From Verrucomicrobiota bacterium (lineage in GTDB: Bacteria; Verrucomicrobiota; Verrucomicrobiia; Limisphaerales; J093): a DNA stretch of 64,000 bases. Position 1 is the stretch's first letter. Every line of letters starts with the position of its first letter. Below, one piece after another: positions 37,206 to 62,670 of the stretch. The stretch is from contig JAXGQW010000010.1 of NCBI GenBank assembly GCA_040766265.1, positions 363 through 64,362 on the forward strand, written 5' to 3'. Both the position numbers and the translations under genes were made by a program. The notes beneath the pieces were generated by a model that did not search any database, was not told the origin of the DNA, and saw only the letters and a program-made list of their open reading frames with translations.

Positions 37206-37295
37206 GTCTCATCGGGGCCGCATGGGTCCGCGTCTTGGAGGTCTCCGGCTTCACGGTCGTGACAACTCCATGAAAGATGCGGGCGGTGTCCCGCC

Positions 37296-37535
37296 CCAGC
37301 CTGCATTTCTCACCACTTTTTGCCACCGCGAAGCCAGAGTTCTCAAGAGAAGTCAGCATGCAGGCTGGGAAAGCAAAACCGCGCCCGAGTGGAGGGATTC
37401 AACCGGGCAACAGGATGTCGCCGCACCTGCGAGGTTCCGGAAGCGCTCCAAACCTCGTCTTTCCCTGTGCGGGCGCGGTTTTGCCACAGCCCGGATTTCG
37501 TTGTCATCCTCCCGGCGGTGAGAAATCCGGGCCAG
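37296..37535. repeat. Stacked hairpin-cassette (MITE-like) array 1: A-B-A'
   Basis: A 37296-37368 nearly identical to 49822-49894; B ends GCAAAACCGCGCCC/GGGCGCGGTTTTGC; A' ends CCCGGATTT/AAATCCGGG. Confidence 0.8.
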
Positions 37536-37597
37536 GTGCGATTCGCGAGAGAACAGGCGGCTTCCCCTGTGGCTGTGAAGAAGGGTACGCTGGACCC

Positions 37598-38344
37598 ATG
37601 AATGGTCTGACGGCGAGGTTGATGGTGTTCACGAGCGGGTTCATTGTCATGGTTCTCGAGATCGTGGGCGCTCGTTTCCTGGGCAGGGATTTCGGCGGTT
37701 CATTCTATGTGTGGGTCAGCCAGATCGGCGTCATCCTGATCGCCCTGGCCGCAGGCTCGTACCTCGGCGGCGCCTGGGCGGACCGGGCACAGCGGTTGCG
37801 TCCGATCGGCGTCTGCCTGCTGATCGCGGGCCTGTTCACGGCGCTCCAGCCCGAGCTGGCTCCGCCCCTGATCGTGTCGATCGTCGCGCGACATCCCGCG
37901 GACGCGCCCATTCCGATGGTTTGGCAGAAGTTGGATCCCGTCCTGGGCAGCGCGGTGGTGTTTCTTCTGCCGGCGCTGGCTCTGGCCACACTGCCGCCGT
38001 ACCTGATCCGATGGTCGACTGGCAGTCTGGACCGGCTCGGACGCTCGAGCGCGGCGATTGTCGCGTCCAACACGCTGGGCGGAATTGCCGGCGTGTTTGC
38101 CACAGGGTATGTTTTGCTGGACGTGATGCGGATATCCAGCATTTTCCGGCTCATGGGAGCGTTGATCGCAGTGCTCGCCGTTTGTTGCCTGTGCGCGGAT
38201 CGCCGCGGGTCAAGGGCGGGTCGAAACCTGGCCCGCATGTGCCATGAACTTGTGACCGCGGCGAAGCCGAACGCCTCCGAAGGTGTGCCAATGCGGGCTG
38301 GAACATTGCCGGCTGCTGCCGGCGTTTCCACGAGTTGCTCATGA
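37598..38344 (+). CDS. Membrane (MFS-like) half of split spermidine-synthase-like protein
   Basis: SGFIVMVLEI.GAR.L...FG.S..VW...IGV.L.ALA.G..LGG..AD; probable ATG 37598. Confidence 0.82.
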   Translation: MNGLTARLMVFTSGFIVMVLEIVGARFLGRDFGGSFYVWVSQIGVILIALAAGSYLGGAWADRAQRLRPIGVCLLIAGLFTALQPELAPPLIVSIVARHPADAPIPMVWQKLDPVLGSAVVFLLPALALATLPPYLIRWSTGSLDRLGRSSAAIVASNTLGGIAGVFATGYVLLDVMRISSIFRLMGALIAVLAVCCLCADRRGSRAGRNLARMCHELVTAAKPNASEGVPMRAGTLPAAAGVSTSCS

Positions 38345-39303
38345 TGCTGCGAAGACACGGCGTGTTGGCGGCTCTTGTCCTGGGGTTACTCGCAGCCCGG
38401 GTAACCGTCGCCGGCGGCGGAACGGTGGTATTCGAGACCACGTCGGTCTACCACCATATTCGCGTGGTCGAGGCGGGGGGATACCGCTCCCTCCTGTTCG
38501 ACAGCTCCGAGCAGTCGCGGATTGCGCTGGCCGACCCGGAGGCCGGCCGTTTCGAGTACATTGATTACTTCTTCATGCCGTGGCTTTGGAACGCGGCGAT
38601 GACGAACGTCCTGATGATCGGCCTGGGCGGCGGCAGCGCGCAGCAGGCATACGCGCGTTATTGCCCCGGAGTGACGGTCGAGACGGTCGAGATCGACCCC
38701 GTCGTATTGAAGGTGGCGGAGGACTATTTCGGCTTCCGCCAATCGCCGCGGCAGCGAGTCGTTATTTCGGACGGCAGGATGTTTCTGCAGCGCAGCCGGC
38801 GACAGTACGACGCGGTGCTCGTCGACGCCTATGTCGAAGGGCGGTATGGCGCCTCGATCCCATATCACCTCGCCACGCAGGAGTTCTTCCGGCTTGTCAA
38901 CGACCGGCTCGCTCCCAACGGCGTCGTCGCCTACAACTGCATCGGCGTGTTGCAGAGCGACAAGGCGGATTTGGTCGGGGCGCTCCATCGGACAATGAAA
39001 TCCGTGTTTCCCCAGGTCTACCTCTTCCCCGCGCGCGAGAGTTGGAATGTGGTGCTGGTGGGGACCCGCAATGCCGAGGCGAAGAGGGCTCACGAGCTTT
39101 GGCCCAACGCCATGCCAGCGTGGCAATCGGGCCGAATGCGGCTCCCGACGTTCTTTCAGCGGCTGGGTGTCTTGCGCGTCGCGCCGCCTTCGAGCTCCGT
39201 CAACTCGCCTTTGCTGGCGGACGACTACGCGCCCGTGGACGGACTGTTGGGAGGCATGCGGCCCTTAGAGCGGTCATTTCACACGCTTCGCGAGGAACCA
39301 TAA
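38341..39303 (+). CDS. Spermidine-synthase-like SAM-dependent transferase domain protein
   Basis: S.YHHIRV, VLMIGLGGG, VEIDP.V, DGR.FL, YD.VLVDAY, L.DDYAPVD. Confidence 0.85.
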   Translation: MMLRRHGVLAALVLGLLAARVTVAGGGTVVFETTSVYHHIRVVEAGGYRSLLFDSSEQSRIALADPEAGRFEYIDYFFMPWLWNAAMTNVLMIGLGGGSAQQAYARYCPGVTVETVEIDPVVLKVAEDYFGFRQSPRQRVVISDGRMFLQRSRRQYDAVLVDAYVEGRYGASIPYHLATQEFFRLVNDRLAPNGVVAYNCIGVLQSDKADLVGALHRTMKSVFPQVYLFPARESWNVVLVGTRNAEAKRAHELWPNAMPAWQSGRMRLPTFFQRLGVLRVAPPSSSVNSPLLADDYAPVDGLLGGMRPLERSFHTLREEP

Positions 39304-39308
39304 CCGGG

Positions 39309-39382
39309 CTAGCGCGCATTTCTCAGCAACTTCTGAAGAACGCGGAGCTGGTGTCATCGAAAAGTGCACTCATGCGCGCTAG
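39309..39382. repeat. Solo A-type hairpin cassette flanked by CTAG
   Basis: CTAG-CGCGCAT...ATGCGCG-CTAG; 4 mismatches against 44798-44871. Confidence 0.85.
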
Positions 39383-39390
39383 CATGCGGG

Positions 39391-39951
39391 TTAGTTCCAC
39401 GAGAGGTCCTCGGGGGACTCCGCCAGGAGGCGATAGCGCCATCCTTTCTTTCTCAGGATATGTTGCCAGAGCCTCGCGGGTTCTGTGTGAAAAACCAGAT
39501 CGACTGTGGCCGGGTGAACCAGCCAGGCGTTGCGACGCATTTCATCCTCGAGCTGGCCCGGGCTCCAGCCGGCGTAGCCGGCGAAGAGCCTGAACTGTTG
39601 AGTGGATGAAAAGGAGTCGCCCAACTCGACAAGCTCGTCGAGCGAGTGGCTCAATCCGAGATTGGGGAGGACGTTGGCATTGGGGAGGTAGGAATCGGTG
39701 TGCAGAAAGCTCATGGCGGTCCCCTGAACAGGGCCGCCGACAAAGAGCGGGAGTTCCTTGATCCGATCGGGCAGGTCGGCGACAAGCGCGTCCCCCACCC
39801 TGTTGCCGCTGAGTTTGTTGAGGACCAGACCGAAAGCGCCCTCGGCGTCGTGCTGGCAAATCAGCACGACCGTGCGATGAAACCACGATCCATAAAGGTT
39901 GCCGCCGTCCAACAGCAATTGGCCTTTCAGGAATTTGGGTGCCTTTGGCAT
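39391..39951 (-). CDS. YqgE/AlgH family protein
   Basis: F.RTVVLICQH..EGAFGLVLN, GGPV, GYAGWSPGQLE.E; ATG 39951. Confidence 0.92.
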   Translation of the reverse strand: MPKAPKFLKGQLLLDGGNLYGSWFHRTVVLICQHDAEGAFGLVLNKLSGNRVGDALVADLPDRIKELPLFVGGPVQGTAMSFLHTDSYLPNANVLPNLGLSHSLDELVELGDSFSSTQQFRLFAGYAGWSPGQLEDEMRRNAWLVHPATVDLVFHTEPARLWQHILRKKGWRYRLLAESPEDLSWN

Positions 39952-40105
39952 GGTCCGATCTTCAGTCGACCGCCTGCGGTCCCGCGGCGCCCCAGCCGGA
40001 AGAGGCGGCGTGCCGATGCCCGCAGGCCGCCCGGCTGTCATTTGCGGCGCAACGAGACTGTGCAACAAGCTTGTCAGTCTGACAACCTCGATTAGATTGA
40101 CGCCC

Positions 40106-40267
40106 ATGAGTGCATCCGGACGAAGACTTGGATGGCTGGTTTTGCTCCTGGCGTTGGCAACCTGGCTCGGCGCGGGGTGTGCCAGCGATTCGGGCAGCAA
40201 GGAGTACATTCCAGGCAAAGGCTGGAGATCAACGGCGGTCGAATCCGGGCCAGCACGGGGCGGTTGA
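40106..40267 (+). CDS. Small putative lipoprotein (53 aa)
   Basis: Basic N-terminus, hydrophobic stretch, LGAGC lipobox, then EYIPGKGW; 18 bp upstream of the ClC gene. Confidence 0.6.
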   Translation: MSASGRRLGWLVLLLALATWLGAGCASDSGSKEYIPGKGWRSTAVESGPARGG

Positions 40268-40285
40268 TCTCGGGAGCGTGACTTC

Positions 40286-42106
40286 ATGGCGTTCGGGCGC
40301 CTGACGTGGGAGCGACTCGCGGCGGCCGGCCAGGCTTATTTGGCGCGCCGGTGGCAGCGGTTGCTCGCCCTGCGACAGCGCCTGCGTCTCAGCGAAGACG
40401 CCATCCACATCGCGCTCGCGGTCGCGATCGGCTTGGTGGCGGGACTGACTAACTTCGTCTTCTTCGGTGCGACGGAACTTATCAAATGGCTGACCCTGAA
40501 CCGGCTGGGTGATCTGACGGAGATCGCGGAGGGACTGGGGCCCTGGACGCGGCTGGCGGGGCCGGCGCTGGGCGGTCTGGTGGCGGGGCTGGCGCTGCAT
40601 TGGGGCCTGCGCGTGGTGGGCACTCAGGGCTCGACCAACTTGCTCGAGGTGGTGGTGGCTGGCGATGGCCGATTGCCCTTTCGCACAACCGGCATCAAAT
40701 CGCTCTCGTCCCTGATCAGCATCGCCACCGGCGCATCGATCGGACGCGAAGGATCGCTCATCCAGCTTTCGGCGACCTTCGCGTCGCAGGGGGGGCAGCG
40801 CTTGCGCTGGCCACCCTATCGCTTGCGGCTGATGGTGGCGTGCGGTGCCGCGGCAGGAATGGCCGCGGCCTACAACGCCCCGATTGCGGGCGCCGTCTTT
40901 GCCGCCCAGATCGTGCTCGGCAATTTCGCGATGAATCTGTTCGCACCCCTGGTGTGCGCCTCGGTCTCGGCGGCGGTTGTGTCGCGCAGCTTTTTCGGCA
41001 TCGAACCCTGGTACACGGTGCCCGACTTCAACTTCACCAGCCTGACGCAATTGCCGTGGTTTGTAGTGCTCGGGGCGGCCTCGGGAACCCTCGGCGCCCT
41101 GTTTCTGAAAATGCTGAGGTGGGGGGAAACCCTGTTCGATCGGACCGGATGGCCGATCCATATCCGGCTGGCCGCCGCCGGACTGGTGGTCGGATCCCTG
41201 GCGATCCAGGTGCCGGAGGTGTGGGGCAACGGCTACGTCGTCACGTCGCGCATCCTCGGCGACGAGGGCATCTACAGCACGTTGTTTGTGCTGGCCTTGC
41301 TCGGCGCCAAGCTCGTTGCCACCGCCTTGACCGTAGGCGCAGGGACGGTGGGCGGCGTGTTCACGCCCACTTTGTTTCTCGGCGCGGCGATGGGGAGCCT
41401 CTTTGGCCACGGGCTGCACGCCTTGGGTCTGGCGGACGCCCTTCCGGCGGGGGCGTTTGCGCTCGTCGGCATGGGCAGCGTCCTGGCCGCGACCACACGC
41501 TCGCCGCTGCTCGCCATGATCATCGTATTCGAGATCTCGCTCAATTACTCACTGATGCCGGCTTTGATGATCGCGTGCGCGGTCGGCACGCTGGTGGGAC
41601 GCGGCCTGCACCCGGCATCCATCTACACCGAACCGCTGCAGCGCAAAGGACTGTTTGTCGAGACCGAGAGCGCGCGCCTCGGCGCGGCCATTGAACGAAC
41701 CGTCGGCGACCTCATGCTGGCCCCGATCGCGCCGGTGCGCGAGACCACGCCGCTCCAGGAGATTGGCCAGCGTTTTCTCACGATCCCGAACAACTACCTG
41801 CCGGTTGTGGATGCTCGCCAGCGCCTGGTGGGAGTGGTGTCTCTGCACGATCTGAAGGGGCACTTGAACGCCGGAGACGAACTCCGGGCCGTGATCGCGC
41901 TGGATATCATGCGCCCGCCTCCCCCGTGCCTGACGCCCAATCAGAGGCTCCAGGACGCCCTCCCCGTCCTTCTTTCGAGCGAAATGCGCAATGTCCCCGT
42001 GGTGAACAACCTGCTCGAATTCCGGCTCACCGGGTCACTCTCGCGCGGCGAAGCGCTCAGGCTTTTCACCGACGCCATCGCCGCCCGGCAGGCGGCGCAC
42101 GATTGA
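40286..42106 (+). CDS. ClC-family chloride channel/transporter with CBS pair
   Basis: GREGS, YNAPIAG, GGVFTPTL, SIY; C-terminal CBS domains. Confidence 0.92.
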   Translation: MAFGRLTWERLAAAGQAYLARRWQRLLALRQRLRLSEDAIHIALAVAIGLVAGLTNFVFFGATELIKWLTLNRLGDLTEIAEGLGPWTRLAGPALGGLVAGLALHWGLRVVGTQGSTNLLEVVVAGDGRLPFRTTGIKSLSSLISIATGASIGREGSLIQLSATFASQGGQRLRWPPYRLRLMVACGAAAGMAAAYNAPIAGAVFAAQIVLGNFAMNLFAPLVCASVSAAVVSRSFFGIEPWYTVPDFNFTSLTQLPWFVVLGAASGTLGALFLKMLRWGETLFDRTGWPIHIRLAAAGLVVGSLAIQVPEVWGNGYVVTSRILGDEGIYSTLFVLALLGAKLVATALTVGAGTVGGVFTPTLFLGAAMGSLFGHGLHALGLADALPAGAFALVGMGSVLAATTRSPLLAMIIVFEISLNYSLMPALMIACAVGTLVGRGLHPASIYTEPLQRKGLFVETESARLGAAIERTVGDLMLAPIAPVRETTPLQEIGQRFLTIPNNYLPVVDARQRLVGVVSLHDLKGHLNAGDELRAVIALDIMRPPPPCLTPNQRLQDALPVLLSSEMRNVPVVNNLLEFRLTGSLSRGEALRLFTDAIAARQAAHD

Positions 42107-42117
42107 TCCGCACGCCG

Positions 42118-42396
42118 TCAGTCTTGGGCACGAATTCGGTCTTTTTTGGTCTCGAGTTCGGCCTGGAGCTTTGCGCGCTCGGCCGCAAGGATGCGCCGGG
42201 CCTGCTCGACTGCTTCGATGTCCCCTTTGATTTCCGCGGCGCGTGCGTCGTTTGTGAGCGCAATCTCACGCTCGGCGATCTTGGCCGCGTAGATCGAATC
42301 GAGTTCGGCGAGTTTCGTCTTCTGGGCGCCCGAGAGCTTCTTGATCGGCGAGTCTCGATTGAGCCGCTCCATGGCCAGTTCGTAAGCTGACTTCAT
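42118..42396 (-). CDS. Small coiled-coil hypothetical protein
   Basis: MKSAYELAMERL start at 42396; 92 aa, helical. Confidence 0.75.
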   Translation of the reverse strand: MKSAYELAMERLNRDSPIKKLSGAQKTKLAELDSIYAAKIAEREIALTNDARAAEIKGDIEAVEQARRILAAERAKLQAELETKKDRIRAQD

Positions 42397-42481
42397 AAAT
42401 CGTTTTGACAAAGGCGCATATGACACGATTCTGCCCGCTGCGCAAGGGCGCAACCGAACCCTTTGGACCTCGACTCAAATC

Positions 42482-43285
42482 ATGTCATTGCCCGTTCAGC
42501 TCATATCAACCGATTTCGATGGCACAATCTTCACCGAATTCGAGAACCCGCCGGTGCCCGAAACCCTGCAGCGACTGCTCCAGGACCTCCAGGCTCGGGG
42601 AGCCCGCTGGGTCATCAACACCGGACGCGACCTGACCAGCCTGATGGAGGCCATGGCGCGGTCCGGCCTTGGCGTTCGGCCGGACTACCTGGTGCTCGTG
42701 GAACGCGAGATCTACATCCATCAGGATCATCGCTATGTCGGTCTGGCAGACTGGAACGACCGCTGTGCGCGCGACCACGCGGCCCTCTACAAGCGAATGC
42801 GCGCCGATGTGCCGCGCCTGACGGCCTGGATCAACGAGCACTTCAACGCCGAGGTCTACGCCGACCCCTGGTCCCCTCTCTGCCTGCTGGCTCGGTCCAA
42901 TCCGGACACCGACGCCATCGAGGCTTTCCTGCGCGAGTACTGCCGCACCGTGCCGAACCTGACGATCACCCGCAACGACGTCTACGCCCGGTTCAGTCAC
43001 ACCGCGTACTCGAAGGGCACCGCCCTGACCGAGATTGCACGCCGCCTGGGAATCGCATCGGCCAACATCTTCGCGGTCGGCGATCATCTCAACGACCTGC
43101 CCATGCTCAAGAAGGAAATCGCCGGATACCTGGCTGCCCCGTCCAATGCCCTGCCCGAGGTCAAGGCCGCCGTCCAGCAGCAAGGCGGCCTCGTCAGCCA
43201 TCTCCCCCACGGCCACGGCGTGGCGCGCGCCTTAAAAACCGTCCTGACTCGCTTTTTTGCTGACTCGAAGCATCCCTCCCCCTAA
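42482..43285 (+). CDS. HAD-superfamily IIB hydrolase
   Basis: STDFDGT, NTGR, SKGTAL, GD.LND..M. Confidence 0.92.
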   Translation: MSLPVQLISTDFDGTIFTEFENPPVPETLQRLLQDLQARGARWVINTGRDLTSLMEAMARSGLGVRPDYLVLVEREIYIHQDHRYVGLADWNDRCARDHAALYKRMRADVPRLTAWINEHFNAEVYADPWSPLCLLARSNPDTDAIEAFLREYCRTVPNLTITRNDVYARFSHTAYSKGTALTEIARRLGIASANIFAVGDHLNDLPMLKKEIAGYLAAPSNALPEVKAAVQQQGGLVSHLPHGHGVARALKTVLTRFFADSKHPSP

Positions 43286-43303
43286 AACTCGATGCCACCT
43301 CGT

Positions 43304-44677
43304 ATGAAGGCTCGACGACGTCCCGTTTCACCAGGCCCAACTGGACTCACGCGGCGCTGTTTTCTCCGTCGCGCCATCGCCCATTCGGCGATCCTCGTTG
43401 TGCCGTCGCGCGTGCTCGGGCGCGGCGGCCAGACCGCGCCGAGCATGAGGCTGAATCTGGCGTGCATCGGGGCCGGCGGGCGCGGTCAAGCGGATCTCGA
43501 TGGTGTGAAGAGCGAGGTCCTTGTGGCCCTGTGTGACGTCGATGAGACCCGCGCCGCCGGGGCGTTGAAGGCGTTTCCGAAGGCGAAGTTCTTCACGGAT
43601 TATCGCCAGTTGTACGATCGGGTCGGGCGCGAGCTTGACGGCGTCGTGGTGGCCACTCCCGATCACACACACGCCGTTGCCGCCTTGGGAGCGATCCGCA
43701 TGGGCAAGCACGTGTATTGCGAAAAGCCGCTCGCGCACTCGCTCGCCGAGGTCCGCACCCTCACCCGCGCGGCACGCAGCGCCAAGATCATCACCCAGGT
43801 CGGCAACCAGGGACATTCCTCGGATTCCATCCGGCAGTTCGTCGAGATGGTGCGGGCGAGCGCTATCGGCACGGTGCGGGAAATCCACTTGTGGAATCAG
43901 AACTCCTACCGGCCGCGCGCTCACCGGACGCGGCCCTCGACAGGCGAAGCGCCCCCCTCGACCTTGCACTGGGATCTCTGGCTCGGGCCCGCGCGGCAAC
44001 GCCCTTACCATTCGGTCTACCACCCCGGTCGATGGCGCGGCTGGATCGATTTCGGGACCGGCATTATTGGCGATTGGACCTGTCACCAGCTCGATCCGTC
44101 GTATTGGGCGCTCGACCTGGGATGTCCTCTCTGGGTCCAGGCGGAATCCGAGGAGTACGACGACGCCAACGTGCGCGCCGAGACTTTTCCCGCCGTGTCG
44201 ACGGTCACGTACGCATTCCCCGCCCGCGGCCAGCGACCGCCGGTCACGGTGAAATGGTTTACCGGCCGGCTTGCGCCGCGTCCGCAGGAACTCGAAGCTC
44301 AGCGTCAAATGCCACAGATCGGCGCCCTGCTCTTCGGGGACCGCGGCACCATCATGCACGGTTCGCACGGCGCGGGCGGAGCCCAGATCATCCCCGCGGA
44401 GAGAGACCGGGCCTACCAACGCCCGCCGCAGACCATTCCGCGCGTCCCGGGGCACTATGAGGATTGGATTCGCGCCTGCAAGGAGGGCCGGGCGGCCGGG
44501 TCCGGCTTCGAGTATGGCGGGCCGTTGACCGAGGTGGCGTTGCTGGGCGTCCTGGCGCAGCGGTTCAACGGACAGAAGCTCGAGTGGGACGCGGACGCGT
44601 TGAAGGTCACGAACCACCCCGAGGCCAACCTGTGGGTGAATCCGCCCAGCCGTCAGGGCTGGGAGCTTGTGGCGTGA
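43304..44677 (+). CDS. Gfo/Idh/MocA oxidoreductase with Tat-like signal
   Basis: TRRCFL, IGAGGRG, ATPDHTH, YCEKPL, GDWTCH. Confidence 0.92.
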   Translation: MKARRRPVSPGPTGLTRRCFLRRAIAHSAILVVPSRVLGRGGQTAPSMRLNLACIGAGGRGQADLDGVKSEVLVALCDVDETRAAGALKAFPKAKFFTDYRQLYDRVGRELDGVVVATPDHTHAVAALGAIRMGKHVYCEKPLAHSLAEVRTLTRAARSAKIITQVGNQGHSSDSIRQFVEMVRASAIGTVREIHLWNQNSYRPRAHRTRPSTGEAPPSTLHWDLWLGPARQRPYHSVYHPGRWRGWIDFGTGIIGDWTCHQLDPSYWALDLGCPLWVQAESEEYDDANVRAETFPAVSTVTYAFPARGQRPPVTVKWFTGRLAPRPQELEAQRQMPQIGALLFGDRGTIMHGSHGAGGAQIIPAERDRAYQRPPQTIPRVPGHYEDWIRACKEGRAAGSGFEYGGPLTEVALLGVLAQRFNGQKLEWDADALKVTNHPEANLWVNPPSRQGWELVA

Positions 44678-44797
44678 ATCCCGGGCCGCGGAACGGCCTG
44701 TCTGGCGCAGTGGGTTCTTTGATTCGTGATCATCCGCGCCTGGGCCTGGCGGCGGGGTAACGTTGGATGGAGGGCGTAGGGGTCTGTGAAACCCGCG

Positions 44798-45230
44798 CTA
44801 GCGCGCATTTCTCACCAACTTCTGAAGAACGCGGAGCCGATGTCATCGAAAGGTGCACTCATGCGCGCTAGCAACCTTGACCGGTGAAACTTGTTGTAAA
44901 CAAGTCAAGTTTCTGTGCTGCGTTGAAGGGGTCAAGGATTCTAAGGAACGAGGCGCGGGAGAGAGGGGCGGGGAAACACGGGGACTCCTCATGGAAAGGA
45001 GGACTGGATTTGGTCTGAGGCGCGCCTCGTTAGCAAAGGAGAGTCGGCTCATCGGTTCATCAAAGCCGGGATACGCCCCAGCCGCTTGGGCGACCCGGGC
45101 ACGCCGACACAGTGTGGTCGAGATTGGGTCCAACTGTTTGGGGCGCGGGTTTCTGAGAGCCCGCATTTCAGGTGAAATGTGGCGGTGACCGGTCAGATGA
45201 CATCAACAGTTGGTGAGAAATGCGGGCTAA
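44798..45230. repeat. Stacked hairpin-cassette array 2: A-D-C-B*-A'
   Basis: Junctions CTAG 44798, CTAG 44868, CTAA 44941, TTAG 45030, CTAA 45227; IR pairs CGCGCAT, CCTTGACC, AACGAGGCGCG, CCCGCATTTC. Confidence 0.8.
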
Positions 45231-45248
45231 GATTCTTGATGCGGCCTA

Positions 45249-45276
45249 TTGAAAACCGCGGCGGTCTTCCTATAGT
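45249..45276 (+). promoter_or_regulatory. Putative sigma70 promoter of speA
   Basis: TTGAAA-N16-TATAGT, 18 bp before the ATG. Confidence 0.55.
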
Positions 45277-45294
45277 GCCGCCCACGATTCAGAA

Positions 45295-47235
45295 ATGAGC
45301 AACCTTAGGGACGACCAGCGGCCTTGGGACATCGCTGCCGCGCGTGGTCTTTATCACATTGACCGTTGGGGGGCGAATTACTTCGACATCAACGAAGCGG
45401 GCCACGTGATCGCCAAACCGCAGCAGGATTCCGGCGCGGTGGTGGACCTGACCGATGTCATCGAGGAAGCGAAGGGGCGGGGATTAAAATTCCCGCTGTT
45501 GATTCGTTTCCAGGACATCCTCAGGCACCGGGTCGAGTCGGTGAACCAGGCGTTTCGCACGTCGATCAGGGAATTCGAGTACAAGGGATCCTACCGCGGC
45601 GTGTTTCCGATCAAGGTCAATCAACTGCGCGAGGTGGTCGAGGAGATCCTGGACGCGGGCCAGTGCTACCAGTTCGGGCTCGAGGTCGGCAGCAAGCCGG
45701 AACTCTTCGCGGGGTTGGCGCTGCAAAGCCAGGTCGGCAGTCTGATCATCTGCAACGGCTACAAGGACTCCGCCTACATCCGGATGGCCTTGATGGGGCT
45801 GAAGCTCGGCAAGACCGTCATTCTGGTCGTCGAGAAACTCGAAGAATTGAGCCAGATTCTCAAGGTCTCGAGGCAGGTTGGCGTCGATCCGCTCATCGGC
45901 ATCCGCGCCCGGCTGGCGAGCAAGGGCGGGGGCAAATGGGCCGAGAGCGCGGGCGAGAACGCCAAGTTCGGGTTGAACACGACGGAACTGCTGGCCGCTG
46001 CGGATCTGCTGCGCGCCGAGAATCTCGGTCATTGTTTCAAACTGCTGCACTTTCACATCGGATCGCAGGTGCCGGACATCCTGACGATCAAGAAGGCCGT
46101 GCAGGAGGCGGCGCGTTACTACGCCAAGCTGGTCAAGATGGGATTCCCGCTGCAGTACTTCGACACCGGCGGCGGCCTGGGGATCGATTACGACGGGAGC
46201 CGGTCGGCCTTCGACAGTTCGACCAACTACACGCTGCAGGAGTACACCAACGACGTGGTCTATTACCTGGCCAGCGTCTGCAACGCCGAGCAGGTGCCTC
46301 ATCCGGACATCGTCAGCGAAAGCGGGCGGGCGATCGTCGCCCACCACAGCGTGTTGATCGTCGAAGTCTTGGGCGCCATCGCCAAACAATGCGATCTGCC
46401 CAATCTGGTCTACGGCGACAACGAGCACGCGATGGTGCAGGAGTTGATCGACATGAAGGAGAACCTCGACAGGCGCAACAAGCTCGAGACCTTCCACGAC
46501 GCCCTCGATCGGAAGGAGCATGCCCAGAACATGTTCACACTCGGCCTGCTCGATCTTCCCGACCGCGCCAAGATCGAGAATCTGTACTGGGAGATCGGCG
46601 AGAAGGTGGTGCAGAGCTTCCGCGGCCACGCCCATGTGCCCGAGGAAATCCTCAGACTCGAAGATAGTCTCTGCGACCAGTATCTCTGCAACTTCTCCGT
46701 GTTTCAGTCCTTGCTCGATCATTGGGCCTTGGGCCAGTTGTTCCCGATCATGCCGATCAGCCGGCTCGACGAACGCCCCACCCGCGAGGCCATTCTGGTC
46801 GACATCACCTGCGATTCCGACGGCCAGGTCGACAAGTTCATCGATCTGCGGGATGTCCGCCACACGCTCCCGCTGCACAAACTGGTCCGTGGCAACGGGC
46901 AGCCCGAGCCGTACTACCTCGGTTTCTTCCTGCTCGGCGCCTATCAGGACATCATGGGCGATCTCCACAACCTGTTCGGCCGCGTCAACGAGGTCCATGT
47001 CTTCCTCGAACCGGACGAGCCGTGCGGCTATTACGTCGAGGAGATCATCGAAGGGGCCACGATCGGCCAATCATTGGCCTCGGTGCAGTACGACGAAAAC
47101 GAGCTCAAGCGACAAATGAAAGCCCAGGTGGATGAAGCGATTCGCACGGACCGCCTCAAACCTTCGGAAGCGATGCGTCTGCTCGACGAATACGAGCACG
47201 GCCTGAAGGAGTACACCTATCTGGCCAAGCATTGA
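45295..47235 (+). CDS. speA: Biosynthetic arginine decarboxylase
   Basis: FPIKVNQ (PLP Lys), GLEVGSKPEL, HFHIGSQ, GGGLGIDYDG, TCDSDG, GAYQDIMGDLHNLFG. Confidence 0.97.
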   Translation: MSNLRDDQRPWDIAAARGLYHIDRWGANYFDINEAGHVIAKPQQDSGAVVDLTDVIEEAKGRGLKFPLLIRFQDILRHRVESVNQAFRTSIREFEYKGSYRGVFPIKVNQLREVVEEILDAGQCYQFGLEVGSKPELFAGLALQSQVGSLIICNGYKDSAYIRMALMGLKLGKTVILVVEKLEELSQILKVSRQVGVDPLIGIRARLASKGGGKWAESAGENAKFGLNTTELLAAADLLRAENLGHCFKLLHFHIGSQVPDILTIKKAVQEAARYYAKLVKMGFPLQYFDTGGGLGIDYDGSRSAFDSSTNYTLQEYTNDVVYYLASVCNAEQVPHPDIVSESGRAIVAHHSVLIVEVLGAIAKQCDLPNLVYGDNEHAMVQELIDMKENLDRRNKLETFHDALDRKEHAQNMFTLGLLDLPDRAKIENLYWEIGEKVVQSFRGHAHVPEEILRLEDSLCDQYLCNFSVFQSLLDHWALGQLFPIMPISRLDERPTREAILVDITCDSDGQVDKFIDLRDVRHTLPLHKLVRGNGQPEPYYLGFFLLGAYQDIMGDLHNLFGRVNEVHVFLEPDEPCGYYVEEIIEGATIGQSLASVQYDENELKRQMKAQVDEAIRTDRLKPSEAMRLLDEYEHGLKEYTYLAKH

Positions 47236-47241
47236 CAGCGC

Positions 47242-47955
47242 GTGCCCCTGCCCGAAGTCAATGCCCCGCCCCGCCCGGTCGAATCCGCATCGGCCACTGA
47301 TCTGATGGTGGCGCTCAGCCGCCTGGTGCGCGGCTTGTCAGCCCTCTTCTGGGGGTTGCCACTCGCATTGGTCGTCTCGGTGCAGACGGCACGCACCAGT
47401 CTTCTCGCCGGTCTGGGCCTGCTTCCCCCCCTGCTCGCCAACGGCCTCCTCTGCTATGCGCTCCACCAGATGCGCCACTTCCAGCGCTCCGAACGAGTGT
47501 GGCAGCACGCCCGCGAGCGCGCTCTCGTGTTCGCCTCGATCAACGTCGGCCTCTCGCCTTTCCTGTATTGGTGGCGGGTCGTGCCGGATGTGATCCACTT
47601 TCAATTCGCCGTCCTGGTCCTTGCCCTGTCCGGTCTGATGCTCCTCTTCACCGTCAATCAAATGCTCCAGCGCCTGACGGCCATGCTGCCCGACGAGACG
47701 CTGCGAATCGAAGCCAGGCTTTTCACCACGCTCAATCTCTATCTGCTGCTCGCCACGGCTCTGCTGGGCGCGGGCTGGGTCGGCCTGGCCCAGATGGGAC
47801 AACCGTCTCTCGCGCTGTCGCTGATGCTCGACATCGCCACCCGGGTGGGCGTGTTGCTCATGTTGTTGCTTGTCCTGCTCCCGCTCGCGCTGACCATGGC
47901 CCTGATCTGGAGGATCAAGGAAACCATCCTCGCCAGCGTCTTCACCTCGGGCTAG
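47242..47955 (+). CDS. Hypothetical multi-pass membrane protein
   Basis: 237 aa with about 6 hydrophobic helices; starts 6 bp after speA. Confidence 0.75.
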   Translation: MPLPEVNAPPRPVESASATDLMVALSRLVRGLSALFWGLPLALVVSVQTARTSLLAGLGLLPPLLANGLLCYALHQMRHFQRSERVWQHARERALVFASINVGLSPFLYWWRVVPDVIHFQFAVLVLALSGLMLLFTVNQMLQRLTAMLPDETLRIEARLFTTLNLYLLLATALLGAGWVGLAQMGQPSLALSLMLDIATRVGVLLMLLLVLLPLALTMALIWRIKETILASVFTSG

Positions 47956-48203
47956 AAAAGCAAAACCGCGCCAGGTTCGAGAGATAGAGAGCTGCATCAC
48001 ACTGTTCCCATGAGAGACCATTCTCAGGACCGACAGAATGCTCCCGGTTCCCTTTCTGGGCGCGGTTTTGCCAGAGCCCGGATGTCAGACTCCGCGGAGC
48101 TTTGTGAAACATCCGGGCTAGGGAGCGAGGCGCGGGAGAGAGGGGTCGGGAAACACGGGGACTTTCCATGAACCGTGGAACCGGATCGTTGATCTTCAAG
48201 CAC

Positions 48204-49549
48204 TTAGGCGATGGCTCGCGCGGGGGCTCTGGGCTGGAGAACCATGTTGTACTTGCGGGCGAGTTTCTCGAGCAGACGCTGCTCGGTCTGAGCGACTTGG
48301 ATTTCATACTGCTTGAGTCCGCGCTCGACATAGGCCTTGCCGTGCACCATCCAGCCAGAACAGTTGGGCCAACTTGCGCGCCAGTGCCAGGTTGGCCACC
48401 AAGCCACCACGGCGACCTTTGATGCGGCGGTAGAACCCGCCCAAAGCGGTGTCCACACTGCGCCCCACACTGCGAGCAATCACACAGAACAAACGACCGG
48501 CGCGATTGCGCGAGCGTCGCTGGCTGCCTTTGCGCTTGCCGCTCTGTTTGCTGCCCGGCGCCACACCCAACCAAGCCGTGAAGTGTTTCTCCGTCTTCCA
48601 CTTCCCGCCCAGGTCGGTCCCCACTTCCCCCACCAACTGCAGCAACGCGTAGTCGGCCATCCCAGGCAACGTGGTCGGATCTTTCCCCCCGCACAGCCGC
48701 CAGAGCAAGCCGTGCAAACCCTCAATCTGCGGCGTGTTGACCCCGCCCCGCTTCGTCGCCGCCGGCGGCGCCGGGGCCTGCGGATCCTCCGGCCCCGTGA
48801 TCTCCTGCAGCACCCTCTGGAGGGCTTGATCGCACTCGCGGATCTTGCTCTGGTAGGACTGCCACAGTTCGTAAGCCTGGCGCAGCGCAAACAGATGCTC
48901 GGGCTTCCAGGTCCCGTGCAAGGCCTCCCGCAATCGCCCCGCCTTGTTCTTTTGAATCTGTGCGTCACACAACGCCAGCAGCGCCACCGGATTGCGTTCC
49001 CCGCCCAGAATGGCCTCGATCATGTTGAGGCCGCTCATCCCGGTCAGGTCGCTGATCACGTCGTGAATCTTGAGATTCATCCGCTCCAGCGCCTTTTGCA
49101 TGTGCTGCTCATGGCTACCGGCCATCACGATGTGGTCGTTGCGCAACCGCAGGTAGTCCTGCAACCGACGGATGTGCTCCGGCGGGACAAAGCCCGGGTT
49201 GAGCAATCCATGTGCGTGCAAGGTCGCCTGCCACTGGCAGTCGCTCATGTCGGTCTTGCGCCCCGGCAAGTTCTTGACGTACTTGCCGTTGACCACCTCT
49301 TCGCCTGTTCCAACACCTCGTGAGGCAGAGCCAATAGATGCCCGTCGCCTCCATCGCCACGCTCTTGACTCCCTGGCCGAGCAGGTAATCCCGCAACTCA
49401 TGGAGTTGGCCAGTCGTCGTCCCGAACACCTTGGGTGGTCCTCCGGCGATCGAGACATGGAGTTGCTCACTTCCGATATCAATCGCGGCGGCTGTGGGAT
49501 TGAGAACAGGCAACGAAGGGGTTGGCGTCTTGTCGTTAGGCATTGGCAA
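48204..49549 (-). pseudogene. IS110 DEDD recombinase, read across three frames
   Basis: AAAIDIG, AMEATGIYW, PGRKTDMSDCQW, FTAWLGVAPGSKQSG, ARKLA; frame changes near 49310 and 48350. Confidence 0.9.
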
Positions 49550-49735
49550 TGTCCACGTCCCGGTGCCCGGCTAGGATCGAAAAGTACAAATCTTTCCAGC
49601 GGGAAGCCTCACGAGCTCGCCAATCAATACGCATGTCGCTAGCCGGAACCAATCTCTCCAACGAGCAACCCTCGCGGGCGCTTCAGAGTGCTTTGCGGTC
49701 ACGCTGCGCCAGAACGCGGACGGGTGTGACTATGC
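49550..49735 (-). ncRNA. Putative IS110 bridge RNA
   Basis: Non-coding end upstream of the recombinase; stems CCGGCTAG/CTAGCCGG; loop segments matching both IS junctions. Confidence 0.6.
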
Positions 49736-49910
49736 CAGGTTCATGGTCCCAATACGCGCCAAATCTGGCGTCTTTGCTCTCCATGAAGACGAGGACTGGA
49801 TTTGGTCTGAGGCGCGCCTCGCTAGCTTGCATTTCTCACCACTTTTTGCCACCGCGAAGCCGGAGTTCACGAGAGAAGTCAGCATGCAGGCTAGGAAAGC
49901 AAAGTCACGC

Positions 49911-53112: not shown

Positions 53113-53193
53113 GTAGTCGCCCCGCGACGCGGGATCAGTCCGCGCCGTCTCGCTCCGTCAAAGGCAGGAATCAGCGCCGACTCACGTCGGCGG
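53113..53193. repeat. GTAG-type REP element (target of the IS; remainder at 55589-55612)
   Basis: GCCGAC-TCAC-GTCGGC hairpin followed by GGCTAC; degenerate GTAG arm at 53113. Confidence 0.7.
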
Positions 53194-53244
53194 CTGGAGT
53201 TTGGACATTTTTTGCTGGACTCGAAACGGCCACTGGGGTAAATC

Positions 53245-54133
53245 GTGGTCGCAGTGGAACCGATCTGCGTCCAGGGCCGCACGCTCACGGGCGATGATCT
53301 GGCGTGGTTGCAGGCTCTGATCGAGCAGCATCCGGCCTGGCATCGCACGGCCCTCTCCCAGTACCTGTGTGAAGCGTGGAACTGGCGCAACGCGGCCGGA
53401 CGTCTCAAGGACATGGCGGCTCGCACGTTGCTGCTCAAGCTGCAGGCCCGTGGGCTCATCGGGCTACCGCCAGCGCAGAAGCGCACCCGTCGACCCTGCG
53501 CGCAGGCTCCTCCTGCTCTCCAGAGCCAGCTCCCGCTCTGGGCACCGGATCGGATCCAGGACGGCCTGGGAGTCGCTGCAACCCACTGAGCCTGGACCTG
53601 GCTCACACCCGCGCCTTGCGCCGCCGCGCGGCTGACCTGCCGGCGTTACCACTACCGCCGGTTTCCACGGAGCGGTCGGCGAGAACGTGCAGTACCTGGC
53701 CAGGGATGTTCGCGGTCGGGACCTGGCCGTGATGGCTTTGGCGCAGCCGCCTGGAAAGTCGCCGCGGGATCAGTTCATCGGTTGGTCGGTGACCCAGCGG
53801 GAGCAACGCCTGGGAGCCATCGCTAACCAACAGCGCTTCTTGGTTTTGCCTTGGGTGCGGGTCCCATCTGGCCTCGCATCTTCTGGCGCTGGCCACCACC
53901 GCTTGTCGGCCGACTGGCAAGCGCTATGGCCATCGGGTGTGGCTGGTCGAGACCTTCGTGGAGTCCCCCCCCCCCCGACCGATTTGCCGCCACGGCCTGC
54001 AAGGCCGCCGGTTGGCAGCACCTGGGATTGACGACGGACGCACCCGTCAAGATCGCCGCATCCTGCGTGCCCCTCGAATAAGCTGGATCAAACCGTTGCA
54101 CCCCGCCTTTCGCACCCATCTCACCACCCATGA
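53245..54133 (+). pseudogene. DUF4338 (DruA-like) protein, frameshifted
   Basis: RTALS..LCEAWNWR..AGRLKDMAAR.LLLKL; RDQFIGW; NQQRFLVLPWVRV; WLVETFVE; KAAGW..LG.T spread over several frames. Confidence 0.8.
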
Positions 54134-55522
54134 AGCTCTTGACCTACACCATCCCAACAGACCGCCCGCTGGGCCTCCGTCGCTTCCCTCAGGACCGTAG
54201 CCTGCAACGGGCCATCGCCTTGGCTTTCGGCATCCTCACCGGCGTGGGCCGGCCTTGCCCTCACCCGCGCCATCGCCTTCCACGGCAACACCCAGAAGGA
54301 GCTGGTCGGCCGACTACAAGGTCTTTTCCCGTTGCCCGTGGGAGCCGCGCGCCCTCTTTCCATCCGATTCTGGAGCGGGCCATCCAGGAGCAGCGCCTCC
54401 AACGGATCGTTGTCAGCACCGACGACACGCGCGTTTAGCGCACCGGCAAACACGTGCCCCAAACCAATAGCATCTGGCCGGCCATGGGACCTTCAAGTCA
54501 ACCTGCGCTGGGGGCATCGCTTTCTCCAATACGGCCTAGCGAGCCTCCCACTCTATCTCCGGGATCTCCGAGCCAGTTCCTCCGTTCCGGTTCCCATCCG
54601 CTTCGAGATGAAAGCTGATGTGATCCAAGAAACCCGGCGCGCACTTCGGACCAACAACTCGAACACTACCCGACAGCTCAAAGCAGAAGAACCTCTCAGT
54701 CCAGTTTGTCGCCTTGACCCAAGAGGTGCGCCCAACCTCAACCAGACCGGCCATCAGGCCGAAGCGGCGAGTCCAGGTCGCTGACGGCTCCTTCGCCAAC
54801 CGCACCGTGTTCGCTCAGGATTGGGAAGCGCAGAACGTGACCATATCGTCCGTTGCCGCAAGGACATCGTCTTATGCCGCCGCGCTCGGGCAAGGGCCGC
54901 TTAACTACGGCTCCACCAAGTTCACCCCGAGCAGGTCCGGCGCCACCCCGTTGCGCACGGTGGCAAGGCCTGGATCTTCGGCGGCTCTTATCGGGAAGTG
55001 CGCTACAAGGACATCACTCGGGTCTATTGGCAAGGAGGAGCCCGCAAGCGGGCCACGTGCGCCTCTTGGTGGTAAGCCGGTGGGCTATCGCACCAGCAAG
55101 AAGGAGCGCAAGTACTATCGGCAGCCCGCCTACCTGCTCACCACCGACCTGACGACCCCGGCCCTCGAGTTACTCCCAAGCCTACTTCGATCGGTGGGGC
55201 ATCGAGGTCAATCACCGCGACGAAGAAAGACATTCTGGGCGTGGGCCAAGCCCAAGTCTGGAATAAGGACTCGGTGAGCAAAGTCCCGGCGCTCTTGGTG
55301 GCCATGTATAGTTGGCTTCAGTTGGCCGGCCTCAAGTGCTACGGCCCCACGCGTACGCAGGTCTATGAACCCCTGCCCAAATGGCGTCGTGGAGCCAAGC
55401 GCCCCTCCTGTTTGGACCTCGTCACACTGCTGCGCAAGCAACTGGCCGACCATCCGGTCACATTCCCGACGGCCAAAGCCCCCGCAACCTACCCCATGAT
55501 GGTCGGCAGCGCCGCCGCCTGA
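54130..55522 (+). pseudogene. IS701/IS4-like DDE transposase, frameshifted
   Basis: STDDTR, VADGSF, YLLTTD, YFDRWGIEVNHRD, LGVGQAQ fragments. Confidence 0.78.
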
Positions 55523-55695
55523 GGTCTTCTCCCTGCCGCCTCACGCTGCCCCCCGCCAAAACCCGTCTCCAGAATGTCCAAACTCCAGGCGCCGACTCAC
55601 GTCGGCGGCTACAGGCTGGTTCATCTTCGTCGTGCGCATTCATCCGATGAATGTCAGTACTCTCGCGGCGAGTCCTGAGACGGCTTCTCAGACAC

Positions 55696-59005: not shown

Positions 59006-59018
59006 TCAGGGTGCCGTT

Positions 59019-59046
59019 GTTGCGCGTTGCGCGTTGAGCGTTGAGC
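59019..59046. repeat. Heptamer tandem repeat (GTTGMGC)x4
   Basis: GTTGCGC GTTGCGC GTTGAGC GTTGAGC. Confidence 0.7.
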
Positions 59047-62580: not shown

Positions 62581-62614
62581 TGGAAAAAGTCGTTAGACAC
62601 AGCGTCAGAAGTTC

Positions 62615-62670
62615 CGCCGCGTGCGGGCACGCGGCCTACAGGCTTGTAGGCCGGGTCCCCTGACCCGGCG
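62615..62670. repeat. Pair of GTAG-type REP hairpins, back to back
   Basis: CCGCGTGC.GGCACGCGG-CCTACA-GGCT-TGTAGG-CCGGGTC...GACCCGG. Confidence 0.7.

Follow-up and report, generated by a model that had tools for sequence, protein, structure and literature searches.

Arrays of short hairpin elements bounded by CTAG-like sites in an uncultured Verrucomicrobia genome

How did four intergenic loci within one stretch of 64,000 nucleotides (the window) come to be built from a shared set of short hairpin modules joined at CTAG-like tetranucleotides? The window belongs to an uncultured Verrucomicrobia MAG (G000, 81% complete), which was compared with five congeners (G001 to G005); the genus consists of uncultured digester and sludge Verrucomicrobia. 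In the reading that we consider probable, miniature MITE-like mobile elements, all of them non-coding, have piled up at these loci by inserting at TA within YTAR and regenerating this site.

Module families and their common boundary

The original prediction that the loci are built from shared modules, each with its own terminal inverted repeat, proved correct: the modules are present as described, each recurs genome-wide, and each is closed by a terminal stem of 9-13 bp. In G000, approximately 850 copies of nine families make up 526 arrays. Non-overlapping copies detected with nhmmer numbered 236 (E), 161 (B), 114 (C), 110 (D), 101 (F), 53 (A2), 34 (A3), 21 (A1) and 20 (Bs), and BLAST yielded 16-96 matches per module at a module coverage of at least 80%. 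Basic modules are 45-125 nt long, in families of 20-236 copies, and their interiors contain no ORF of meaningful length. Self-BLAST depth was at least 5 in 1422 regions that add up to 198 kb, and approximately 3.6% of the genome is covered by short repeats of all kinds. Some modules had to be renamed. The single 'A' module of the prediction comprises three distinct families (A1, A2 and A3), of which A1 is an A-type hairpin element (CCTGCAT...ATGCAGG). B*, once regarded as a variant of B (GCAAAACCGCGCC...GGCGCGGTTTTGC), is a separate family, Bs, with its own terminal repeat (GAAACCCGCGCCC), and A' corresponds to F.

Eight to 16 end positions were paired in the terminal inverted repeat test of E, A2, F, B, C and D. 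DNA-fold z-scores ranged from -2.6 to -4.4 in six of eight modules and were -1.0 and -0.7 in the other two; the module interiors were mostly without structure. In the boundary profiles, C-T-A-R was found in 66-100% of cases in eight families (E, A1, A2, A3, F, B, C and D), in agreement with the expectation of several non-autonomous families with common CTAG-like boundaries, while the profiles of H, K and R did not contain it. Module ends read TA/R...Y/TA within a Y-TA-R context, and adjacent modules are spaced by 3-4 nt in 238 of 320 pairs. The junctions are not all CTAG-like, as had been assumed: those between a B-type and an inverted A-type module read CAG, GAG or TGAGAG, not YTAR. Module families were present in all five congeners. 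Outside the genus, two of the 25 genomes searched gave matches: the first belongs to another genus and has C-like copies (74-79% identity), and the second yielded just one weak match (E-value 5.7e-4).

CTAG is the second-rarest tetranucleotide of the genome (1187 copies, observed/expected 0.30). Module boundaries, which cover 0.34% of this CTAG-avoiding genome, hold 343 of the copies (29%), and CTAG density is 18.4 per kb there versus 0.15 per kb elsewhere. In the assumption-free self-BLAST, 193 of 1015 HSP-start peaks fell on CTAG, CTAA or TTAG, which together occupy approximately 0.07% of genome positions. The junction tetranucleotides are enriched, as predicted, and are not due to chance. 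Array ends located no more than 5 nt from a stop codon numbered 180 (TAG 109, TAA 51, TGA 20), with a genome-wide usage of 2267 TGA, 846 TAG and 473 TAA, counts that rest on a purpose-made, crude gene caller.

About a third of the gene-3'-facing array ends (174 of 508) adjoin a stop codon, which would suit host-selected functional elements (3'-UTR RNA hairpins, terminators or protein-binding sites) as opposed to selfish insertions. A2 is partly co-oriented with the gene that lies upstream (31/14, p 0.016), and contigs of RNA libraries bridge a gene end into A2 (44607-44827), the latter evidence being weak because it consists of contigs only and DNA carry-over is possible. Selection by the host is nevertheless highly improbable as the origin of the arrays: no Rfam family matched the modules, terminator-like sites are not in excess (10 found versus 10.2 expected), most families show no orientation bias, module interiors are largely unstructured, and presence or absence at the same genes varies between close congeners.

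According to the favoured reading of MITE-like insertion, elements would enter at the TA of a CTAG-like (YTAR) site, usually a stop codon (TAG or TAA) with C or T in front of it, and would duplicate the TA. As the R...Y ends of an element would come to lie within a Y...R target, both new junctions would read YTAR again, and since CTAG is strongly depleted in the genome, such self-made junctions would account for many of the targets on offer. Newcomers, among them full-size IS of the same target preference, could then land beside earlier elements, so that arrays would seed their own growth. Some neighbours have fused into units that are now amplified jointly (E-B-F, A1-B-F, A4-Bs-A3, D-C and A2-B), and imprecise deletions trim the arrays. 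In this way, target-regenerating insertion could turn stop codons into growing, species-variable mosaics.

Family E illustrates the element ends. Among 180 copies scored, the flanks read CTAAC..GTTAG in 48, CTAGC..GCTAG in 26 and were mixed in six. The TA-adjacent base is part of the element: it follows the subfamily, and this position shows Watson-Crick pairing in 165 of 192 copies versus 92 when shuffled. The outermost boundary base is variable (C in about 80%, with T and G among the rest), in line with an origin from target DNA. In a few copies the flanking dinucleotide varies inverted rather than direct (CTGA..TCAG), and direct CTAA..CTAA is missing among the 30 commonest flank pairs. These flanks and the boundary profiles agree with a TA duplication and a preference for CTAG. 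YTAR is found on both sides of elements, yet CTAG is palindromic and a TA duplication is thus not proven by it.

The four window loci and their orthologues

Table 1. Features of the four array loci, in window coordinates (> and < denote module orientation).
Locus	Position	Strand	Feature	Evidence
1	37296..37299	.	Outer left junction CCAG, degenerate CTAG	Sequence reading
1	37300..37364	+	Module A1	21 copies genome-wide; DNA fold
1	37369..37486	+	Module B	161 copies genome-wide; stem counts
1	37490..37531	-	F-like module (A'), inverted A-type end of A1>B>F< composite	
1	37532-37535		CCAG after F-like module	
2	39309..39382	+	Solo element CTAG-A2-CTAG between convergent genes	
2	39383..39394	.	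8-nt remnant of E right end (CATGCGGG) and TTAG	Comparison with intact E in G005 and G004
3	44783..44797	+	Left arm of Bs (TCTG-TGAAACCCGCG), severed by nested stack	Alignment with three intact copies
3	44798..44871	+	CTAG-A2-CTAG, first element of stack nested in Bs	
3	44872..45033	+	D>C> composite: D 44872-44940, CTAA 44941-44944, C 44945-45029, TTAG 45030-45033	
3	45034..45230	+	Remaining Bs to 45153, TGAGAG junction, inverted A3 45160-45226, terminal CTAA 45227-45230	
4	47952..47955	+	Entry-site CTAG with TAG stop (47953-47955) of gene 47242-47955	
4	47956..48121	+	B 47956-48073, GAG, inverted F 48077-48117, CTAG 48118-48121	
4	48122..49825	+	Module C, split by IS110-family element; CTAG 49822-49825	
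4	49826..49910	+	A1 49826-49890, CTAG 49891-49894, B-like 5' remnant (GAAAGCAAAG...) into start of next gene	

All four loci differ among the five congeners (insertion polymorphism), and the comparison shows real gain and loss of modules. At locus 1, the orthologue in G005 is without the entire array and reads CTCGAG/GTGCGG, and G002 retains the F-like module alone; in G000 this module did not match the F profile at an E-value of 1e-3. Locus 2 is filled by A2 in G002, D-C in G001, B<E< in G005 and X-F-E< in G004, and is empty in the outgroup G003 (CGACTAATTCC, with a bare CTAA stop). The TTA within the TTAG that follows the E remnant of G000 is the stop codon of a minus-strand gene (39391-40287).

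Locus 3, previously described as a linear array, is a nested insertion, with A2 and D-C stacked inside a Bs element at a position where three other Bs copies read CCCAG. The Bs-A3 unit measures approximately 196 nt and is up to 97% identical to a copy in G003.

The array of locus 4 starts at the TAG stop of the upstream gene, as predicted. In G001, G002, G004 and G005 the same entry CTAG is followed directly by A1 (gene-CTAG-A1), and these four congeners have a single CTAG where G000 has CTAG flanking both sides of a B-F-C block. B-F is present only in G000, the A1 part is conserved in the four congeners, and the counterpart in G003 is a full A1-B-F. Locus 4 of G000 has gained B-F-C beside a resident A1. 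Together with the four fills and the empty outgroup site of locus 2, this agrees with the predicted accumulation at one site. Module C is interrupted by a 1.6-kb IS110-family element (about 48164-49778, +/-8 nt) with its transposase on the minus strand (Pfam Transposase_20, 42.7 bits; seven BLAST matches over at least 80% of the length, window copy counted). The closing 'B' of the array, formerly listed as a module, is a remnant of about 10-16 nt.

Elsewhere, an insertion in G001 lies right after a CTAG stop and is absent in G000. Three empty-site comparisons are without a clean YTAR, namely locus 1 (CGAG versus CCAG..CCAG), G005 at window 82381, and the D-C site of C134. Arrays of this kind alter the 3' ends of genes and the intergenic distances from one close species to the next, and assemblies break at them.

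Composite units and array order

Order and orientation are fixed in the composites E>B>F< (46 isolated arrays, 52 triples), D>C>, A2>B> and A4>Bs>A3<. Common variants of partner modules are linked, as none of 300 re-pairings reached the observed mean mutual information in any of the four pairs tested, and distances between partners are correlated in D>C> (r 0.56) and A2>B> (r 0.72). Both D>C> and A2>B> are amplified as whole blocks, and yet the outer ends of their consensus sequences are not inverted repeats of each other. Because such multi-module composites propagate as units, much of the module order is fixed, and the arrays cannot be read as the ordered, processive record of single insertions that had been proposed. 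The proposed shuffling holds for the arrays, with their many types and varied fills, and not within E-B-F, D-C, A2-B and A4-Bs-A3; the fixed order that would have spoken for one composite repeat is found in part, in these units.

Fixed order (also in A3>Bs<) and linked variants would equally be expected if independent stacking did not occur at all and a few long composites (A-B-A, D-C) had inserted whole, to be eroded later by deletions between internal CTAG-like sites. Deletions that took modules along with flanking unique DNA were indeed found in G001, G002, G004 and G005. This explanation appears quite improbable, however, given (i) the unrelated fills at the same orthologous site in different congeners; (ii) the B-F-C block added beside a conserved A1 only in G000; (iii) A2 and D-C inside a Bs element; (iv) the three B>F<C> blocks of the genome, which carry different B subfamilies; (v) E copies with and without B, which are interleaved by sequence (nearest neighbour in the same state in 58% versus 51% by chance); and (vi) the composites themselves, which join one another in many orders to give 68 array types.

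Resident insertion sequences and candidate mobilising systems

Full-size IS were predicted to use the arrays as a landing pad, and several do. Two IS630-family elements are flanked by CTAG/TGTAATG..., one IS630-family element sits exactly in an E/F junction with TTA on both sides, and TAA flanks its second copy (C1). Of five IS701-family (DDE_5) copies, three are flanked by CTAG..CTAG, one by CTAT..CTAC, and the last is disrupted at its left end and has CTAG on the right; two of the five lie at module boundaries, adjoining E and E-B-F. The modules and the resident IS630- and IS701-family elements thus have their CTAG sites in common, junctions included, and the IS110-family element in C is a further case.

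The most likely enzyme source for the MITE-like modules would be a trans-acting DDE transposase from a family that targets TA/YTAR. The full-length IS with module termini that had been anticipated was found neither in G000, which is 81% complete and in which IS often stay unassembled, nor among seven IS630-family loci scanned in the five congeners. The IS630, IS701, IS1182 and IS5-type loci inspected in G000 had no termini in common with any module. As to a dedicated cassette-accretion enzyme, the analysis provided evidence neither for nor against it. Sequence-specific transposases do not readily account for a boundary motif common to eight or more families whose terminal repeats are unrelated, and the joint amplification of blocks with unrelated ends, with no matching transposase in sight, is of real mechanistic interest.

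Among known systems (cited here from excerpts of the respective papers), ISY100/IS630 elements duplicate TA (PMC2170065), and RUP of Streptococcus pneumoniae is linked to IS630-Spn1 (PMC2229807). RUP and other IS630/Tc1-mariner MITEs resemble the modules in being small, non-coding, of high copy number, with terminal inverted repeats and TA flanks (PMC2229807, PMC2170065). RUP ends resemble those of IS630-Spn1 (PMC2229807), whereas the resident IS630-family ends (TGTAATGTCTCA..., TTCGATTTCGCTTTCAAG...) are unlike those of every module, and similarity of ends does not mark the modules as IS630-derived MITEs. A further difference is the single target common here to eight or more families whose ends are unrelated, along with the co-amplification of composites that lack matching ends. 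The CTAG flanks of the IS630-family elements recall the TA in 5'-CTAG-3' at which IS630 reportedly inserts, going by the title of a 1991 paper of Tenzen and Ohtsubo. MITEPsy1 of Pseudomonas syringae, an IS5-family derivative of about 100 nt, also inserts at CTAG or YTAA, with a 4-nt direct repeat in the excerpt of PMC3189936. E flanks, in contrast, are inverted (CTAA..TTAG 48, CTAG..CTAG 26, no CTAA..CTAA in the top 30 pairs), unlike the direct 4-nt YTAR duplication of an IS5-type MITE.

The occurrence of YTAR on at least eight unrelated hairpin families, and of co-amplified blocks with non-matching outer ends, could point to structure-guided mobilisation as another route. REP/BIME-like or IS200/IS605-PATE-like hairpins would be moved by an HUH (Y1) transposase or a recombinase that reads the hairpin foot plus YTAR, and any hairpin run between two YTAR sites could move as a unit. 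We judge this unlikely, and slightly more doubtful still a sequence-independent form in which an HUH/Y1 or attC-like recombinase reads the hairpin foot plus CTAG and moves or accretes hairpin blocks. If true, such a system would be a CTAG-tagged counterpart of REP/BIME-RAYT. It would accommodate unrelated stem sequences with one boundary motif, composites that co-amplify without terminal inverted repeats, and the recurrent A>-B-<A architecture, which is like REP dimers with a spacer. Mosaic intergenic hairpin arrays with set orientations, inverted pairs around a spacer and a hairpin-foot tag are likewise described for BIMEs, REP clusters with hybrid dimers, and REPINs (excerpts of PMC2817692 and PMC3733652). 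The stems of E, F and C show compensatory variants; this covariation tracks subfamilies, so descent can explain it.

The genome contains 17 Y1_Tnp matches at 14 distinct places. None of the 14 has a CTAG-class module within 1.8 kb, none of 11 examined closely has an abutting repeat within 600 nt, and homology of the six-copy Y1 gene stops at the gene itself. REPs measure 20-40 nt, are RAYT-linked and carry GTAG/CGTC at one end only (excerpt of PMC3733652, in which CTAG does not occur); the modules measure 45-125 nt, carry YTAR at both ends and have no associated Y1 gene. GTAG density is 1.8 per kb at module boundaries versus 1.55 per kb elsewhere, and neither in size and tags nor in Y1 distance do the modules match a REP/BIME system with RAYT. 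Through target-regenerating insertion, BIME-like architecture could arise in a simple way with no need of REP/RAYT. PATEs of the IS200/IS605 type have differing subterminal hairpins, lack TIR and TSD, and insert with a strand bias 3' of a fixed tetranucleotide. Their two-hairpin layout fits the composites, and no orientation bias relative to GC skew was seen (for instance E 81/86 and D 39/43) in this draft genome, with a weak control, as 51% of genes lie on the G-rich strand.

In integron attC cassette arrays, every recombination site has conserved inverse-core and core sites, RYYYAAC ... GTTRRRY. The reading ..CTAAC...GTTAG.. is confined to the CTAA subfamily of E; AAC/GTT is absent from its CTAG subfamily and from D, A2 and B, and on this point the modules do not match an attC array. 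Plant Stowaway-type MITEs and Neisseria Correia elements are TA-flanked and often insert within or beside other copies. Clustered Stowaway insertions are mentioned in an excerpt of PMC3695323. Those systems are eukaryotic or single-family, whereas here several families form ordered multi-module arrays at bacterial stop codons.

Module families and their junctions

The source genome (G000) is a 5.54-Mb draft of 191 contigs with 64% G+C and a completeness of 81%; the window spans C2:363-64362 in it. The four array loci of the window proved to be intergenic, as predicted, and every module named in the original prediction recurred genome-wide, with 16-96 BLAST hits per module when hits covering at least 80% of the module were counted. 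Profile searches with overlaps removed yielded 236 copies of E, 161 of B, 114 of C, 110 of D, 101 of F, the A' of the original prediction, 53 of A2, 34 of A3, 21 of A1 and 20 of Bs. Modules fold with a closing stem of 9-13 bp and a largely unstructured interior; they had no match in Rfam, and terminator-like sites were not in excess. In self-BLAST, a depth of at least five was reached in 1422 regions covering 198 kb. A 20-mer from the commonest repeat family occurred in 53 stretches, confined to MAGs labelled Verrucomicrobia or Verrucomicrobiota. No description of CTAG-tagged stacked arrays in bacteria, or of these families, was found in the open-access library searched.

Three families of a different kind, without CTAG boundaries, are present in G000. 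H (110 copies) is about 54 nt long (GGTTCATGG...CCATGAACC). K (132 copies) is about 137 nt long and forms long tandem arrays in the congener G005. R (68 copies of about 37 nt, GTCGCCCCGGTG...GGATTGAAAC; around position 12221 of contig C187) occurs in a single orientation and has a CRISPR-array-like appearance. Further, tandem heptamers CGTTGAA/CGTTGAG, found genome-wide, differ in length between G000 and G005.

Positions of features in the window
Feature	Position	Remark
Locus 1	37296-37535	
Locus 2	39309-39394	between convergent genes
Locus 3	44783-45230	
Bs left arm, locus 3	44783-44797	remainder of Bs from 45034
Locus 4	47952-49910	
IS110-family element	48164-49778 (+/-8)	splits module C
2.45-kb IS	53153-55664	site without IS in G001 and G005
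H/K entries	55573-55664, 62594-62697	
Tandem heptamers	59015-59043	
103-nt segment	61058-61160	missing at orthologous site of G001; not a CTAG-class module
Stretches missing in G001	37235-38022, 43451-45227	
Gene, 5' part deleted in G001	37277-38344	
Gene, mostly deleted in G001	43292-44677	

The observation of module arrays with CTAG-like junctions was confirmed, and the junction tetranucleotides were enriched far above chance. Positions where many self-BLAST alignments begin or end were collected with no motif assumed; 193 of 1015 start peaks and 181 of 1039 end peaks fell on CTAG, CTAA or TTAG. CTAG is the second-rarest tetranucleotide of G000 (1187 copies, observed/expected 0.30). Boundary zones, which make up 0.34% of the genome, contain 343 of these copies (29%), a density of 18.4 per kb against 0.15 in the rest of the genome; within the zones CTAA and TTAG reach 10.5 and 9.4 per kb, compared with about 0.2 elsewhere. 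C-T-A-R was present at 66-100% in the boundary profiles of E, A1, A2, A3, F, B, C and D, and nothing like it was seen in those of H, K and R. Adjoining CTAG-class modules were spaced by 3-4 nt in 238 of 320 pairs.

Among 180 scored E copies, the flanks were CTAAC..GTTAG in 48, CTAGC..GCTAG in 26 and mixed in six. The base beside TA follows the subfamily and is complementary between the two ends (Watson-Crick pairing in 165 of 192 copies versus 92 shuffled), and the outermost flank base is variable. The pattern is consistent with an element R...Y that has TA on each side, in a Y_TA_R target. The E flanks do not agree with a 4-nt direct duplication. At CTAG sites duplication cannot be proven from flanks because CTAG is palindromic.

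The modules are probably MITE-like elements which target and regenerate CTAG-like (YTAR) sites, and regeneration of the site on insertion would account for their stacking. The original interpretation was thus supported in part; the ordered record of insertions that it envisaged was not supported, since composite units account for much of the module order. IS701 prefers YTAR. IS630 reportedly prefers CTAG, as the title of a 1991 paper by Tenzen and Ohtsubo has it. Further comparators are Correia elements, nested Stowaways, PATEs and attC core sites. IS630/ISY100 duplicate TA (PMC2170065), MITEPsy1 targets CTAG or YTAA with a 4-nt duplication (PMC3189936), RUP is linked to IS630-Spn1 (PMC2229807) and other IS701 members have 4-5-bp repeats (PMC8024623). 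REP elements, for which clusters are described, carry the tags GTAG and CGTC, and 'CTAG' occurs nowhere in that article (PMC3733652).

Module order and gene context

Module order had been predicted to be shuffled. This holds for composite units and solo modules, which join in 68 array types; within the composites E>B>F<, D>C>, A2>B> and A4>Bs>A3< (arrowheads give orientation) order is fixed and partners share their history. E stood alone in 118 arrays. B nearly always had its left end against an A-type module's right end, and E>B> (37 joins), A2>B> (20) and A1>B> (7) compare with a single B>E<. F follows B in inverted orientation, with 46 arrays consisting of E>B>F< in isolation and a total of 52 such triples. 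C follows D in most of the best 40 D copies listed, in one orientation only, and Bs accompanies A3.

Pairwise distances of partners were correlated (r = 0.56 for D-C, 0.72 for A2-B, 0.32 for E-B, 0.39 for B-F and 0.28 for E-F; permutation p 0.002 each). Mean mutual information of common variants was 0.128 versus 0.065 for D-C, 0.190 versus 0.051 for E-B, 0.186 versus 0.051 for B-F and 0.289 versus 0.126 for A2-B, and none of 300 re-pairings attained the observed value for any of these four pairs. Composites therefore amplify jointly, and array order is in large part inherited from them. That arrays are nothing else than a few long composites, inserted whole and then eroded, is improbable given the diversity of array types formed by joined composites and solos. 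In addition, E copies with and without B were interleaved by sequence (58% versus 51% by chance), and the B subfamily differs between the three B>F<C> blocks of G000.

At locus 3, the predicted linear order A-D-C-B*-A' had to be abandoned. Three other copies preserve the full unit, A4>-TCTG-Bs-TGAGAG-<A3, in which GAAACCCGCGCCC...GGGCGCGGGTTTC close Bs. The window copy has A2 and D-C between the left Bs arm and the remainder of Bs; its stack is bordered by CTAG...TTAG, where the intact copies have CCCAG at the insertion point. As the Bs arm is split here and continuous in the intact copies, locus 3 is a nested insertion of A2 and D-C within Bs. Modules split by others were also sought as internal empty sites, which returned K-family cases only.

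Array ends lay within 5 nt of a stop codon in 180 cases (TAG 109, TAA 51, TGA 20), compared with a genome-wide usage of 2267 TGA, 846 TAG and 473 TAA, all counts resting on a crude gene caller made for this analysis. Abutment was far commoner at gene tails (174/508) than at heads (28/380). No strong orientation bias relative to genes was found; the apparent bias at stop codons (E 59/20, D 29/2) largely reflects how composites are built, and the overall numbers were close to even. Strand bias relative to GC skew gave no signal, with a weak control (genes only 51% on the G-rich strand). RNA-library contigs bridging the upstream gene and A2 give a weak hint of read-through into A2.

Orthologous sites in congeners

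The module families are present in all five congeners (G001-G005). Outside the genus, 25 genomes were searched and two gave matches: a genome of a different genus has C-like copies (74-79% identity), and the other yielded only one weak match. Sites were compared on syntenic contigs of 93-97% identity. At locus 4, A1 comes immediately after gene...GGGCTAG in G001, G002, G004 and G005; only in G000 does B-F-CTAG-C-CTAG lie between the CTAG of the gene and A1, with an IS110-family element in C. Locus 2 is filled by A2 plus an 8-nt E remnant in G000 and G002, by D-C in G001, by B<E< in G005 and by another module, F and E in G004. In G003, which is more distant, the site is just CGACTAATTCC, in which CTA is the complement of a TAG stop of the minus-strand gene. 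The array of locus 1 is lacking in G005 (CTCGAG|GTGCGG versus CCAG[...]CCAG), and F alone is kept in G002. Elsewhere, G001 carries an insertion directly after a CTAG stop at a site without it in G000, and F'-B-A2 in G005 corresponds to CCAAAAG in G000.

In these alignments gains fall on YTAR-like sites, and losses are in many cases imprecise deletions. Locus 3 is absent from G001, G004 and G005 along with adjoining unique DNA, and a D-C unit on contig C134 is deleted in G001, the deletion extending 27 and 21 nt into its flanks. For an A2 solo on contig C115, the four closest congeners provided no empty site, its flanks lying on separate contigs there. Logan contigs of public runs contained at most 41% of sampled words, with joints mostly from other repeat copies, and yielded neither usable empty alleles nor a measure of expression. 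The two window stretches missing in G001 take in parts of two genes as well as arrays; these deletions therefore took arrays together with coding DNA.

Search for a mobilising enzyme

No long element with module-like ends was found in G000. A pattern search for A-type ends, A1/A2-type ends being outside the pattern, returned 109 sites, 103 of them in annotated modules, and no autonomous partner; of 29 orphan module ends in G000, none were paired at 400-6000 nt. Inverted-repeat searches around IS630, IS5-like, IS701 and IS1182 loci gave no module-matching ends. The IS630 loci scanned in congeners have ends unlike any module, and an IS630-like ORF of 524-534 aa on contig C15 is without module-like ends.

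G000 has nine matches to IS630-family genes. Two elements are flanked by CTAG|TGTAATG..., and a further one lies exactly in an E|F junction with TTA on both sides, its second copy being flanked by TAA. An IS701-family element of 1.37 kb (DDE_5, 212.6 bits) is present in five copies (C5, C106, C110, C134 and C1), three with CTAG..CTAG flanks and two directly at module boundaries. One IS1182-like gene was found.

D>C> and other composites amplify despite non-matching outer ends, which sits uneasily with a DDE transposase of sequence-specific action and leaves structure-guided mobilisation as an unlikely alternative. No association with Y1/RAYT was detected, there being no module near any of the 14 Y1_Tnp places. 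A Y1_Tnp gene of about 340 aa exists in six copies of 92-95% identity (C46, C117, C118, C126, C137 and C152), whose homology is limited to the gene plus some 50 nt upstream of it, with no terminal hairpins.

The IS110-family element of the window (Transposase_20, 42.7 bits) gave seven BLAST hits that span 80% or more of its length, the window copy included, all with the left end TTCCATGAACC. Two other copies lie inside H-family hairpins; the target is therefore a CCATGAA-like motif and not module C as such. Finally, the 2.45-kb IS (ends CTGGAGTTTGGACATTTTT..., about ten copies) targets small GC-rich hairpins, the whole hairpin of about 20 bp being duplicated on both sides.
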